Shown here in pieces: positions 1 through 4,471 of a stretch of DNA of 4,471 nt. This DNA is from a virus (taxonomy: Duplodnaviria > Heunggongvirae > Uroviricota > Caudoviricetes), in IMG/VR virus record IMGVR_UViG_2534682327_000006. One strand, written 5' to 3'. Both the position numbers and the translations under genes were made by a program. A model generated the notes under the pieces. It did not search any database, had not been told where the DNA came from, and saw nothing but the letters and a program-made list of their open reading frames with translations. The first letter of the stretch is position 1. Every line of letters starts with the position of its first letter.

Positions 1-2015
1 CGGGCTGTGCTGACCAGCCGCTCACTGCCGTCATCCGCTGCCACGGTCAGGCGAAGCATGAAACTCACGCCCTTCACCACCTTCGGCGTATCCCAGCGGG
101 CCAGTACCTGATACTCCCCGCTGTCTGCGGTGACTTCGGCGGTCAGATGCTGCACTGCTGGCGGCGTGACACCATTCACCGTGCCGCTCTGGTCGCCGTC
201 AAAGTGCGCCCCGTTATCCACGATGGCCTCTTTTTCCGGTACATGCTGCACGGCGGTGATGGCATACGTGCCGTCATCGTTCTCACGGATACTCACGCAG
301 CGGAACAGGCGCTGGCGCAGCGTCGGCAGCTTCAGCCCCCACACGCTGTATCCGGCAACGCCGTCAGGAACACGGCTCACTTTTACCTTCACGCCGTCGG
401 TGACGGACTGGACCTCCACGCTGACCGGATTGCCACTTCCGTCAACCAGGCTTATCAGCGTGGTACCGGAGGATGGCAGCGTGATTTCACGGTCGAGCGT
501 CAGCGTCCGGGTCTGGCTGTTCACCGCCAGCACGCGCCCGCCGGTGCTGATACCCGCATAGTCATCATCGCAGATTTCAATGACATCCCCCGGTACATGG
601 CGAAGCCCTTCCGCACCCACGCTGAAGTCCACGGTCTGCGTTTCCAGCAGTTCCGTTTTAATCAGCCACAGCCCGGCGCGGTGCGCCTGCCCCCGGCTGG
701 TACAGCCAAAGGCATCCATCTTCGTGACGTTACGACCGTAACGGGCAATGGCCTGCGTATCTTCAACAAGCTCTGTCGCCGTCTCCCAGCCGTTGTTCGG
801 GTCAATCCAGTTCACCTCAACGGCATTATGGCGGTCCTTCAGGGCGCTGAAGCTGTAGCGGAACGGCGCGCCATCATCCGGCATCACCACATTACTGCGG
901 TTATAGGTCCACACCTTATCTGATGGTCGGTCCTGCACGAACGTCAGCGTCTGCCCGTTCCATACCGGCATACAGCGCATCGCCGAGCAGAAATCACTGA
1001 GCACATCCCACGCCTTACGCTGCGTGGTCAGGTAGGCATTACAGGTGATGCGCGGCTCCGTGCCGCCAAAACCGTCCGGCACCGACTGGTCGCAGTACTG
1101 GCCGATGACATACAGCGCCCATTTATCCACATCTGCCGCACCAAGACGTTTCCCCATGCCGTAGCGCGGATGGGTCAGCATATCCCACAGACACCAGGCC
1201 ATGTTGTTGCTGTATGCTGGCTTAAACGTTCCGTCCCAGATACCGCTGTATTGCCGCGTCTGCGGGTTATAGTTCGACGGCACCTGCAGAATGCGCCCGC
1301 GCAGATGATAATTACGGCTCACCTGCTGGCTGCCGAACTGCTCCGAGTCCACCTGCACGCCGACCAGTGCCGTGTTCGGGTAGCACTGTTTCACATCGAT
1401 AATTTCGGTGTATGACGACCAGAGCGTTTTGTTCTGCAGCTGGTCTGTGGTGCTGTCCGGCGTCATCCTGCGCATCCGGATATTAAACGGGCGCGGCGGC
1501 AGGTTATCCACCACCACCGAGGCCAGATACTGTGAAGTGGTTTTGCCCTTAATGGTGATGTCTTTTTCTGTCACCCAGCCACCGTTACGTTGTATCTGAA
1601 CCAGCAGGCGGACTTCCGACGGATTCCTGTCCCCCTTTGAGGTGGTTTCCACCAGTGCCTGCACACCGAAGGTAAAGCGCAGACGGTCGATATTTGCAGA
1701 CGTGATGGTCCGGGTGATCGGCGTGTCATATTTCACTTCCGTACCCAGCACCGTCTCGGAGCCGGAGGATTCAAATCCCTCCGGCGGAGTCTGCTCCTGC
1801 TCACCTGCCCGGAACACCACCGTGACACCGGAGATGTTGGTATTCCCCTCAGTGTCCAGCACCGGCGTACTGTTCAGCAGCACGCTTTTTAATCCATCCA
1901 CCGGACCTTCAATCGGCCCTTCACTGATGGCATCAATCACACTCAGCAACTGCGTGGATTTCAGGTTGTCCTTCGCTTCGCGCGGGGTATGCCCCTTACT
2001 GCTGCCTTTACCCAT
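1..2015 (-). CDS. J: Tail-tip host-specificity protein J (central tail fibre), N-terminal 671 codons; gene continues beyond the window start
   Basis: Minus-strand ATG at 2015..2013 with GGAG 8 nt upstream; translation begins MGKGSSKGHTPR. Hand translations in the same frame at 1499..1441 (PPRPFNIRMRRMTPDSTTDQ), 1019..961 (RKAWDVLSDFCSAMRCMPVW) and 59..3 (MLRLTVAADDGSERLVSTA) all match lambda gpJ as I recall it. Absent from the ORF track presumably because no stop codon falls inside the window. I did not check every codon for stops. Confidence 0.9.
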   Translation of the reverse strand, partial: MGKGSSKGHTPREAKDNLKSTQLLSVIDAISEGPIEGPVDGLKSVLLNSTPVLDTEGNTNISGVTVVFRAGEQEQTPPEGFESSGSETVLGTEVKYDTPITRTITSANIDRLRFTFGVQALVETTSKGDRNPSEVRLLVQIQRNGGWVTEKDITIKGKTTSQYLASVVVDNLPPRPFNIRMRRMTPDSTTDQLQNKTLWSSYTEIIDVKQCYPNTALVGVQVDSEQFGSQQVSRNYHLRGRILQVPSNYNPQTRQYSGIWDGTFKPAYSNNMAWCLWDMLTHPRYGMGKRLGAADVDKWALYVIGQYCDQSVPDGFGGTEPRITCNAYLTTQRKAWDVLSDFCSAMRCMPVWNGQTLTFVQDRPSDKVWTYNRSNVVMPDDGAPFRYSFSALKDRHNAVEVNWIDPNNGWETATELVEDTQAIARYGRNVTKMDAFGCTSRGQAHRAGLWLIKTELLETQTVDFSVGAEGLRHVPGDVIEICDDDYAGISTGGRVLAVNSQTRTLTLDREITLPSSGTTLISLVDGSGNPVSVEVQSVTDGVKVKVSRVPDGVAGYSVWGLKLPTLRQRLFRCVSIRENDDGTYAITAVQHVPEKEAIVDNGAHFDGDQSGTVNGVTPPAVQHLTAEVTADSGEYQVLARWDTPKVVKGVSFMLRLTVAADDGSERLVSTA

Positions 2016-2037
2016 TCGTCATGCTCCATAAACGACA

Positions 2038-2057
2038 AAACCGCCCGGAGGCGGTTT
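2038..2057 (-). other. RNA stem-loop in the I-J spacer (8-bp stem, 4-nt loop) followed by a U-rich tract on the transcribed strand
   Basis: Plus strand 2038..2045 AAACCGCC, loop 2046..2049 CGGA, 2050..2057 GGCGGTTT: perfect inverted repeat. In mRNA sense (minus strand) it reads AAACCGCC-UCCG-GGCGGUUU, then UGUCGUUUAUGGAGCAUGACGA-AUG (J start). Confidence 0.35.
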
Positions 2058-2075
2058 CACATAAAACATTTTGCA

Positions 2076-2723
2076 TCAGCGACCAATCACCACAACCTGA
2101 CCACCGTCCCCTTCGTCTGCCGTGCTGATCTCCTGAGAAACCACCCGCGACCCCACACGCATTTCCCCGTACAGAACAGGCAAAACATTGCCCTGAGCAA
2201 CCATGTTATCCAGTGAGGAAAAATAGGTGTTCTGTTTGCCGTTATCTGTACTGGCTGCCGTGGACGTCCTGGCTTTCGGTGCCAGCATCTGCGCCACACC
2301 GCCCAGGATCATACTGGCCCCTGCCGCATACATGCCCGATACAGCCGCGGCACCCAGCCAGCCCACAGGGTTCCACCATGCCACCGCAATCAACGCCGCC
2401 CCCAGCACCACCTGAAATACACCGCCACTTTTAGCTCCCGCCAGACGCGGCACGATATGGATCACGGCACCATTTGCCAGCGGCTCATTAAGACGGGCAG
2501 ATAATTCGGTTTCACCTGCATCACGCCCGGCAATGCGCACCTGATACCAGCCGTCATTCAGTTTCTGACGAAACGCCGGGAGCTGTGTGGCCAGCGCCCG
2601 GATGGCTTCGGCCCCCGTTTTCACACGAAGGTCGATGCGGCGGCCAAATCGTTGCAAATCCCCGTAAAGGCAGATGCGTGCCATGCCCGGTGACGCCAGA
2701 GGGAGTGTGTGCGTCGCTGCCAT
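2076..2723 (-). CDS. I: Tail-tip assembly protein I (215 aa)
   Basis: ORF track 2076..2723 minus. ATG at 2723..2721, stop TGA at 2078..2076. N-terminus MAATHTLPLASPGMARICLYGDLQRFGRRIDLRVKTGAEAIRALATQL and C-terminus NGKQNTYFSSLDNMVAQGNVLPVLYGEMRVGSRVVSQEISTADEGDGGQVVVIGR match lambda gpI from memory. Sits 60 nt upstream of J, as in lambda. Confidence 0.9.
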   Translation of the reverse strand: MAATHTLPLASPGMARICLYGDLQRFGRRIDLRVKTGAEAIRALATQLPAFRQKLNDGWYQVRIAGRDAGETELSARLNEPLANGAVIHIVPRLAGAKSGGVFQVVLGAALIAVAWWNPVGWLGAAAVSGMYAAGASMILGGVAQMLAPKARTSTAASTDNGKQNTYFSSLDNMVAQGNVLPVLYGEMRVGSRVVSQEISTADEGDGGQVVVIGR

Positions 2724-3364
2724 TTGTCGGTATACCTCTCTCGTTTGCTCAGTTGTTCAGGAATATGGTGCAGCAGCTCGCCGTCACCACAGTAAATGGC
2801 GGCATGATTCGGCACCGATGAACCAAAACAGCACAGCAGCACATCGCCCGGCTGCGCCGCTGACAACGGCACCTGATACAGCCCTGTGGCCTCCAGATTA
2901 TCCAGATAGAGATTCTGACCGTGACGCCACCAGTCATCCCCGCGATGAAAATCCGGCATCTCAATCCCCGCCAGATGATAAGCATCCCGGAACAGCGTGT
3001 AACAGTCCGTCACCCCGTGCTCAAAGCGCCGCCCGGTAAGATGCGGCACACTGCGGAATTTATGAATCTCACCCCGGCAGACCAGCCACCAAGGCAAATC
3101 GCTCTGCACCTGCAGCCGCCTGTCAGCCTCACTCAGCCAGGGCAGACCACCGGGGTGGCTGTGGACCAGCGCCACAATCTCACCCTGTATCTCTGCCCGC
3201 AGCCAGTCCTCCGGCGACATCCGGAAATACGCCTCCGGCTCACCGGAGATATTCACGCAGGGAAAATATCTTTCCCCCTCCGGCGTTCTCACCACGAAGC
3301 CGCACGATTCCGCTGGCGCACATCGCCGGGCGTGCGCCAGAATCGCTGATTCTGTCTGTGTCAT
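2621..3364 (-). CDS. K: Tail-tip assembly protein K (247 aa form) with N-terminal JAB/MPN (JAMM) motifs and C-terminal NlpC/P60-like motifs
   Basis: Same frame as track ORF 2621..3439, but I place the start at the ATG 3364..3362, 4 nt after the L stop; the track start at 3439 is a GTG inside L. Motifs read directly: ExCG (AESCG, Glu codon 3310..3308), HSHPGGLPWLSEAD (HxHx7SxxD, first His codon 3163..3161), NlpC/P60-like Cys in TDCYTLF (codon 3004..3002) and downstream PGDVLL...NHAAIYCG...HH. Stop TGA at 2623..2621. The last 103 nt overlap the start of I in another frame. Start site is uncertain: the internal Met at 3220 is the alternative. Confidence 0.85.
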   Translation of the reverse strand: MTQTESAILAHARRCAPAESCGFVVRTPEGERYFPCVNISGEPEAYFRMSPEDWLRAEIQGEIVALVHSHPGGLPWLSEADRRLQVQSDLPWWLVCRGEIHKFRSVPHLTGRRFEHGVTDCYTLFRDAYHLAGIEMPDFHRGDDWWRHGQNLYLDNLEATGLYQVPLSAAQPGDVLLCCFGSSVPNHAAIYCGDGELLHHIPEQLSKRERYTDKWQRRTHSLWRHRAWHASAFTGICNDLAAASTFV

Positions 3365-3368
3365 GGGA

Positions 3369-4067
3369 TTACTGCGAAAGTTTGTTAATGGAAAGGAAGC
3401 CGCCAAAGTTGCCGACGTTATTGCGAAACTTACAGCCACTCAGGCATTTGCTGCATTTATCCTTCGTGATATCGGACGTCGGCTGGTCATATTCATCAGC
3501 GACAGCCGGACCGTGATAACCGCACTCATCACCGCGATAGGTCCAGGTGCAGGTGTTGGCCAGCATGATGCGCCCCGGAAAAACAGCACCATCCGTTTCC
3601 GTCGGTGTGGAGAGCACAAAGGAGGCACTGACCGCACTCAGTTCGCTACACTGCTCGATGCGCCAGCGGCTGATCACCTCCTGCTCCGGATCGGCGTCGC
3701 TGTTTCCGTTGACGAAGTTCACCGCATCCAGAAAACGGGCGTAAACCTTACGCCTGACCACCGTTCCGCCGACCAGACTCTGCAGGTCTTCCGCCATCCC
3801 GGTGACCATGCCGTGCAGGTTAGAGACCGTCAGTGTCGGACGGGCAGCACTGCCCTTACCGTTCAGTTCAAATCCCGTCCCCTGAATGGGGTATGCCTGA
3901 TACTGCCGCCCCTGCCAGGTGACCGGCTCACCTTTTTCGTTCTGCTCATTACAGAAAAAATAACGTTCACCACCGACCTCTGTCAGATCGATTTCCCAGA
4001 GCACCACCTGGGCTGACTGAGTAAGGCGTGTCGTCTCATGATGTGTTTCCTGTGGAATATCCTGCAT
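3369..4067 (-). CDS. L: Tail-tip protein L (232 aa), cysteine-rich C-terminal region
   Basis: ORF track 3369..4067 minus. ATG at 4067..4065 with GAGG 7 nt upstream; stop TAA at 3371..3369. Sequence (LWEIDLTEVGGERYFFCNEQNEKGEPVTWQGRQYQ ... CSKCLSGCKFRNNVGNFGGFLSINKLSQ) matches lambda gpL from memory, and the 699-nt length equals the lambda L gene as I recall it. Confidence 0.92.
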   Translation of the reverse strand: MQDIPQETHHETTRLTQSAQVVLWEIDLTEVGGERYFFCNEQNEKGEPVTWQGRQYQAYPIQGTGFELNGKGSAARPTLTVSNLHGMVTGMAEDLQSLVGGTVVRRKVYARFLDAVNFVNGNSDADPEQEVISRWRIEQCSELSAVSASFVLSTPTETDGAVFPGRIMLANTCTWTYRGDECGYHGPAVADEYDQPTSDITKDKCSKCLSGCKFRNNVGNFGGFLSINKLSQ

Positions 4068-4076
4068 CAGGGCCTC

Positions 4077-4313
4077 CTATGCCACGACCTGTTCAAAATC
4101 TGCCGTTATGGTTACCCACAGCGCCCCCACGCTTGCCGACCATTTACGACACCCCCCCCTGATCGGCTTCCAGTCATAAGGTGGCGTCCACTGAAATGCG
4201 CGGACGCCACCGTGCCGTTCCAGAAAGGCTTTCAAAGATGGGTGTTCACATTTACGAACACGTATCGTCACGCTGTAAGTCGACAACTGGTTATTCAGTC
4301 CGTAAGCGTCGTC
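4077..4313 (-). pseudogene. M: Tail-tip protein M, 5'-truncated remnant (roughly the C-terminal 78 of about 109 codons)
   Basis: Minus-frame translation ...DDAYGLNNQLSTYSVTIRVRKCEHPSLKAFLERHGGVRAFQWTPPYDWKPIRGGCRKWSASVGALWVTITADFEQVVA aligns with the C-terminal part of lambda gpM (AGLNANLKTYSVTLSV...FLEEHGG...WTPPYEW...AEFEQVVN, from memory). Stop TAG at 4079..4077. An in-frame TGA sits at 4316..4314, and there is no ATG or GTG between it and the TTG at 4286 that the ORF track uses as a start. No convincing gpM N-terminus in any frame further right. Confidence 0.6.
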
Positions 4314-4334
4314 TCAGCACCGTCTGGCAGATCC

Positions 4335-4471
4335 TGAAATTCCTGAGAGAATAGTGGACACCAAATATGGTGGACGCTATCCATGAAATCATTAACCGCA
4401 GTGCGTAAAAAAAGCCCTAATTATCCCGTTGAGTTCAAAATCAAAATGGTTGAACTCTCGCATCGACCAGA
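4335..4471 (+). mobile_element. Probable left end of an IS3-family insertion sequence (terminal inverted repeat plus start of OrfA); partial, runs off the window
   Basis: From about 4335 the sequence starts 5'-TGAAATTCCTGAGAGAATAGTGGACACC, with a TG terminus and a TAGTGGACAC block that I recall from the IS3 left inverted repeat. About 41% GC over 4335..4471 by hand count, against visibly GC-richer phage DNA to the left. A + strand ORF starts 48 nt inside. Boundary is approximate (about +/- 12 nt); only one end is visible. Confidence 0.45.
4383..4471 (+). CDS. Putative IS3-family transposase OrfA, N-terminal fragment (29 codons in window)
   Basis: ATG at 4383; translation MKSLTAVRKKSPNYPVEFKIKMVELSHRP, open to the window end. 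The YPxEFKxKxVEL pattern resembles the start of the helix-turn-helix region of IS3-family OrfA proteins (IS150-like YP(F)EK / xEFK signatures, from memory). Too short to assign to a named element. Confidence 0.4.
   Translation, partial: MKSLTAVRKKSPNYPVEFKIKMVELSHRP

Follow-up and report, generated by a model that had tools for sequence, protein, structure and literature searches.

What cut short the tail gene M at the right-hand end of this DNA, and was anything else lost with it? The window analysed here is the whole 4,471-nucleotide stretch of virus record IMGVR_UViG_2534682327_000006 (Caudoviricetes), and a first-pass annotation of its letters had proposed the end of an IS3-family element, possibly with an adjacent deletion. 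We put a probability of about 0.95 on a different account, in which an IS66-family element (ISEc22-like; 2454 bp in a reference copy, with tnpA, tnpB and a DDE transposase) would have transposed into codon 38 of M, in the orientation opposite to the gene, in a lambda-like prophage of an enterotoxigenic Escherichia coli (ETEC) lineage. It would be a simple insertion, flanked by an 8-bp target duplication, with nothing deleted.

The DNA to the left of the break is ordinary lambdoid prophage DNA, since positions 1-4301 match the deposited lambdoid phage records PhiR47_1, Tritos, mEp460 and cdtI at 96-98% identity over the whole length. The minus strand of the window carries the tail genes in the lambda-type order M-L-K-I-J, and downstream of M these are as follows.

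3369 to 4067, minus strand: tail gene L, intact (PF05100 Phage_tail_L, E = 1.8e-99).
2621 to 3364, minus strand: tail gene K, apparently intact (Pfam Prok-JAB and NLPC_P60).
2076 to 2723, minus strand: tail gene I, apparently intact (Pfam Lambda_tail_I, PF06805).
Open to the window start, minus strand: 5' two-thirds of tail gene J, apparently intact, a 672-codon open frame running off the left end.

As we read the sequence, L has its own ribosome-binding site, an AGGAGG that overlaps the M stop. K and I share 103 nt (2621-2723) if I starts at the ATG at 2723; the PGAP start of I in E. coli GPEC657 lies later and gives a 603-nt gene. The long plus-strand open reading frames antisense to J and L (147-923, 258 aa; 3363-4016, 217 aa; 130-561, 143 aa) look like shadow frames of GC-rich coding sequence and not like genes.

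What is left of M in the window comprises two features.

4077 to 4301, minus strand: 3' remainder of M, the distal tail protein gene: codons 36-109 of 109 plus the stop.
4284 to 4286, minus strand: a TTG, the sole possible start of the M remnant in the list of open reading frames (69-aa frame).

The reading frame ends at its stop codon at 4077-4079, and the remnant matches PF05939 (Phage_min_tail) with E = 2.9e-22 across profile positions 35-108 of 108; up to 4301 it is 99% identical to the uninterrupted M of E. coli 120899. Position agrees with profile: L lies directly downstream and, minus the inserted element, H lies directly upstream. Read upstream, the sequence ...GLNNQLSTYSV is preceded by D-D-A-Y and then by an in-frame TGA (4316..4314), with no ATG or GTG in the M frame between that TGA and the TTG at 4286. 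The first-pass annotation had read the frame in this way, and its 69-residue product from the TTG agrees with the list of open reading frames, although the surviving part of M amounts to 74 codons (residues 36-109) and not just those 69. No AGGAGG-like (Shine-Dalgarno-like) motif was found in TGAGACGACGCTTACGGACTGAATAACCAG, the sequence upstream of the TTG, and the inserted element separates the remnant from the M start codon and its ribosome-binding site; we infer that the remnant goes untranslated from the TTG.

Within the remnant, positions 4153-4160 of the window consist of eight consecutive C (G8 on the coding, minus strand), at M codons 84-85. The allele in the window has Gly-Gly at residues 84-85, in contrast to Val-Val in the common allele of GPEC657 and 120899, a change that makes up two or more of the few differences separating this stretch from the 120899 gene. 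The Gly-Gly allele also occurs uninterrupted elsewhere (EIZ3558131.1) and so probably reflects genuine variation, not an error of sequencing.

The breakpoint was located by alignment with an uninterrupted M (E. coli 120899, L002) and with an independent copy of the mobile element that lies in gene H of E. coli GPEC657 (L001). The window tracks M to 4301 and the element from 4302; in a megablast comparison with phages the M match likewise stops at query base 62, which is window position 4301. The features at and beyond this point are given below.

4294 to 4301, no strand: left copy of the 8-bp target-site duplication, TTCAGTCC; the same 8 bp stand at the right end of the insertion sequence (IS).
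4302 to 4471, plus strand: first 170 nt of the IS66-family insertion sequence (ISEc22-like); the window ends within it.
4302 to 4327, plus strand: imperfect inverted repeat at the left end of the element, GTAAGCGTCGTCTCAGCACCGTCTGG, as aligned with its right end.
4383 to 4471, plus strand: 5' part of tnpA (coding for the IS66 accessory protein, of 134 aa in the complete element), from the ATG at 4383, MKSLTAVRKK..., MKSLTAVRKKSPNYPVEFKIKMVELSHRP...

The element begins GTAAGCGTCGTCTCAGCACC... at 4302 (also given as GTAAGCGTCGTC...), its first bases being GTAAGCG (4302-4308), and window positions 4302-4471 equal L001:4831-5000 at 170 of 170 positions. Its two ends match at the first 8 of 8 positions and at 15 of the first 22; past position 22 the left repeat agrees only sparsely with the right end, and its inner limit at 4327 is approximate. 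An inverted-repeat finder run with a 9-nt seed missed these terminal repeats, whose ends share only 8 consecutive bases; the ends were read by eye and then aligned. The ATG of tnpA stands 81 nt from the IS end, as it does in GPEC657 (tnpA = IS positions 82-486), and the 109 residues of TnpA encoded in a longer contig (L003) match PF01527, HTH_Tnp_1, with E = 5.9e-12.

This alignment moves the border of M. Homology to M had been carried to about 4313, but it stops 12 nt earlier, at 4301, and the codons at 4313..4302 that read D-D-A-Y come from the IS. The start of the element had been placed near 4335, at a TG; its actual first bases, GTAAGCG, lie 33 nt earlier. Within the left inverted repeat fall the TGA at which the M frame closes and the greater part of the GC-rich 21 nt at 4314-4334. 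Those 21 nt had been offered as a possible frameshifted trace of the gpM N-terminus, which is ruled out: they are part of the terminal repeat of the IS and are identical at the unrelated GPEC657 site. The change of composition that drew attention to the region is real (40.9% GC over the last 137 nt vs 58.3% for 1-4301), and the minus strand to the right of 4316 is indeed full of stops.

What kind of element this is can be read from its ends and its genes. The reference copy in GPEC657 spans 2454 bp (L001:4831-7284), has the ends GTAAGCG...CGCTTAC, is bounded by the 8-bp direct repeat ATTTCATC, and contains tnpA (HTH), tnpB and a DDE_Tnp_IS66 transposase gene, which PGAP labels 'IS66-like element accessory protein TnpA', 'IS66 family ... 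TnpB' and 'IS66-like element ISEc22 family transposase'. The copy in M can be compared by its assembled ends: the left end encodes a TnpA that matches PF01527 and the right end a transposase C-terminus that matches PF03050/PF13817, and they differ from the GPEC657 copy by 1 mismatch in the left 410 nt and by 0-1 mismatches in the right 328-391 nt. The GTAAGCG at 4302-4308 has its counterpart in the right end ...CGCTTAC, read in both L007 (a contig described below) and L001, and 8-bp duplications flank the copy in M (TTCAGTCC), a second copy in the same prophage (ATATCACC) and the copy in GPEC657 (ATTTCATC). On these sequence features the element in M is assigned to the IS66 family as ISEc22-like, the name ISEc22 being the PGAP product label on WP_000099202.1. 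From the ends and from the GPEC657 copy we infer its middle with tnpB, how long it is and that its three genes are intact.

The target duplications (window 4294-4301; L007:299-306; L001:4823-4830) lean toward A/T, and 2 of the 3 fit ATnTCAnC, a sample too small to speak of a target preference.

The IS3 proposal, with an end near 4335 and perhaps a deletion of the M N-terminus and the end of H, drew on a plus-strand frame with HTH_Tnp_1, a domain also present in IS3 OrfA proteins, on the fall in GC past about 4335, and on a TG at 4337. The frame exists, at 4383, and it has PF01527, but its product is the TnpA of an IS66 element and not an IS3 OrfA; the likeness to OrfA is real but non-diagnostic, because IS66 TnpA shares this domain. 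IS3-family elements have TG...CA ends and short target duplications. Here the sequence common to an independent copy of the element begins at 4302 and not at 4335, the true termini are GTAAGCG and CGCTTAC without TG...CA, and the duplication is 8 bp long, not 3-5 bp. The gene content differs as well: a separate tnpB stands between tnpA and the transposase gene, unlike the OrfA-OrfB arrangement of IS3, and in place of an OrfAB frameshift fusion with an rve-type DDE domain there is a DDE_Tnp_IS66 (PF03050) transposase, in genes that PGAP calls IS66-like. The IS3 family is excluded because of the ends, the duplication length and the transposase.

Whether DNA was lost at the insertion can be decided only at the other end of the element, which lies outside the window, since contigs of draft assemblies end within repeated copies of an IS. 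The window is identical over all 3499 shared nt to the 3739-bp contig APYC01000082.1 of GCA_000357005.2, which reaches 240 nt further into the IS. The 69-aa M remnant is on record once, on this contig, and NCBI gives its source as E. coli P0299438.3; the designation P0299438 refers to a patient who contributed ten sequenced isolates to an ETEC population-structure study (PMC4462620). Assuming a simple insertion with an 8-bp duplication, we predicted the right junction beforehand as ...GCG GGA CTG AA/G TAA GCG... (the slash marks the junction), and with it a stub of 38 residues, METFH...RRAAGLK, consisting of M1-37, a Lys and a stop, that is METFHWKVRPDMNVVSEPKVVTVKLGDGYEQRRAAGLK. This stub was found exactly in the protein collection, in E. 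coli P0299438.5, P0299438.11 and others. It also lies on APYC01000020.1 (L007), from the same assembly as APYC01000082.1, directly after a 1018-aa H, which itself follows T, G, V, U and Z. The junction on this contig reads GGACTGAA followed directly by GTAAGCGTGCAGC..., the right IS end extending for 328 nt with 0 mismatches and encoding, on the strand opposite to M, the transposase C-terminus of the IS66 element. GGACTGAA is TTCAGTCC read in the M direction, and it adjoins the right IS end in L007, L004-L006 and L008-L010.

When the IS and one copy of TTCAGTCC are removed in silico, a 109-aa M results that is exactly an uninterrupted protein of another E. coli (EIZ3558131.1). Codons 1-37 of M have thus been split from codons 36-109, with codons 36-37 and part of 38 duplicated, and the stop of the 38-residue stub is supplied by the right IS end. 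Because the N-terminal part of M stands directly beyond the IS, together with a full-length H and the genes upstream of it, and because the 8-bp duplication is perfect, there was no deletion; by its two junctions the insertion in M is a simple one. The idea of an adjacent deletion falls with this result, and an IS3 insertion with deletion, refuted by the alignment at 4302 and by the right junction with the M start and H, is almost certainly wrong. Of the first-pass annotation there stands the central point that an insertion sequence interrupts M, borne out by the alignment break at 4301/4302, by the junctions and by the duplication. The checks that it proposed gave these results: alignment to an uninterrupted M and to phages located the breakpoint, H and the upstream tail and head genes do resume beyond the IS in the same assembly, and the other inverted repeat was found, although with a duplication of 8 bp instead of 3-4 bp.

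Both the window and APYC01000082.1 end inside a repeated element, the least reliable zone of an assembly, and one could ask whether a chimeric contig end has joined the prophage to an unrelated IS read. The left junction is identical in the two, however, and the right junction occurs in five P0299438-series assemblies, in GCA_049980385.1 and in the Logan run ERR4899337; together with the matching 8-bp duplication it is present at seven loci drawn from three or more unrelated sequencing projects, and a chimera would yield no perfect target duplication. Since the junction recurs in several separate assemblies, it is not an assembly artefact, an explanation to which we give practically no weight. 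Searches of broader collections returned no one-piece copy of the junction: its 27 nt had 0 exact-pattern matches in a contig collection with one genome per species, a result that says little, and megablast did not find it in 5,426 complete E. coli genomes, where the 11 full-coverage matches are in two pieces and derive from a different insertion, in H.

That other insertion belongs to a wider record of the same IS in this prophage type. In the P0299438.3 prophage itself a second copy, inverted with respect to the copy in M and with its own duplication ATATCACC, splits a head protease/capsid fusion gene at about codon 59 of the 675-aa gene (junction regions L012:10107-10545 and L007:1-306). 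Its left junction is on APYC01000018.1 of the same assembly, which carries Q, holins, endolysin, terminase, portal and the head-gene stub, then ATATCACC adjoining GTAAGCGTCGTC... (the left inverted repeat) and tnpA; its right junction is on APYC01000020.1, where the right inverted repeat adjoins ATATCACC... A 49-aa N-terminal stub of the head gene, counted from an internal ATG, has an exact match in the protein collection, from which the 72-aa version counted from a GTG start is absent. APYC01000020.1 is flanked at both sides by right IS ends. From these contigs the layout of the P0299438.3 prophage is read as Q-lysis-terminase-portal-protease' IS> 'capsid...H-M' <IS 'M-L-K-I-J. The stretch between the two copies measures 8.2 kb, and most carriers have the head gene split by this second copy upstream of M. 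In GCA_049980385.1 (L004) the insertion in M is present and the head gene is uninterrupted, and ERR4899337 (L010), which has both insertions, is identical to L004 over 8202 nt, a stretch in which L007 differs at 3 sites. Because L004 has the M insertion only and L010, identical over 8202 nt, has both, the insertion in M preceded the one in the head gene.

Two nearly identical, inverted copies, with right IS ends on both sides of APYC01000020.1, also admit the view that they have recombined, inverting the 8.2-kb segment from capsid to M', or that they act as a compound transposon. An inversion would leave all four junction sequences unchanged, and short-read contigs leave the pairing of left and right ends of the two copies ambiguous. 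Yet each pair of junctions has its own matching 8-bp duplication, as expected from two simple insertions, L004 with its intact head gene indicates sequential events, and nothing suggests that the segment has relocated; we therefore regard recombination or compound transposition as unlikely. The same IS has also gone independently into H, the tape-measure gene, in prophages of this type from 11 complete E. coli genomes (H1-H11), most of them of chicken origin. It is highly improbable, in our judgment, that an invertible 8.2-kb segment or a compound transposon is moving phage structural genes here, or that the repeated insertions (in M, in the head gene, and in H in 11 genomes) are due not to chance but to selection that locks prophages in place.

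Two simple insertions, the first of them in M, would have had consequences for the prophage. The distal tail protein gpM assembles into a hexameric ring, by which the gpJ/gpL tip is attached to the tail tube, and 109 of 109 of its residues are structured (PMC10721106). To judge from lambda, a prophage without gpM would fail to build functional tails, and the 2.45-kb IS in the late operon may also lower transcription of L-K-I-J. That the tail is disabled, and the tail-tip module inactivated in a defective prophage, is thus very likely from the analysis of M, which is split and whose remnant has neither a start nor a ribosome-binding site of its own. The first-pass annotation had allowed, as an alternative, for a domesticated tail cluster, a tailocin-like assembly kept by the host in which M is dispensable or has been replaced. 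L, K and I are intact, and so is J as far as it is visible, as such a cluster would have them. But all 4301 nt of phage DNA are 96-98% identical to lambdoid phage records, the rest of the prophage follows lambda order, with Q and the lysis, terminase, portal, head and tail genes, and gpM is a structural ring of the tail (PMC10721106). Moreover, M differs from a live allele, uninterrupted elsewhere, by the IS only, which points to a recent event with no time for domestication. We consider domestication extremely improbable, and the genes as assembled argue that the prophage is doubly defective (in M and in the head gene), recently crippled and not domesticated.

The event is an ordinary and well understood one, a known kind of event involving a known element, and it offers no novelty. 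Its value is mainly corrective, in that an IS66-family insertion with an 8-bp duplication replaces an IS3 insertion with a deletion; it is the sign of a lambdoid prophage that became inactive recently in an ETEC lineage, and it raises no new question. There is also some practical use: short contigs that end in an IS can be stitched by predicting the reciprocal junction, and the two sequential insertions could serve as lineage markers.

Among known elements, the closest likeness is to ISEc22 and the classic IS66-family members (IS66, IS679, ISEc8), which have the same ends and 8-bp duplication as found here and the three-gene layout of the reference copy; we detected no difference from them in a copy whose centre is unassembled and whose ISEc22 label comes by way of PGAP. 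Ends of the GTAAGCG type with the three-gene layout are known in other IS66-family members (PMC12888890), and an 8-bp duplication has been reported both for IS66 (PMC6778807) and for ISEc22 (PMC4048246). The insertion in H, as in GPEC657, involves the same IS (identical at 170 of 170 left-end positions) in the same tail module and in the same orientation relative to the tail genes, but it lies about 440 nt upstream of M, has the duplication ATTTCATC and leaves M intact; being at a different site, it is a separate transposition event. With lambda and with PhiR47_1, mEp460, cdtI and Tritos the prophage has in common the gene order H-M-L-K-I-J. The reconstructed M matches what we take to be the lambda gpM sequence at 59 of 109 positions, and it shares with the gpM family both PF05939 and the length of 109 residues, whereas the M of the window is split after codon 37.
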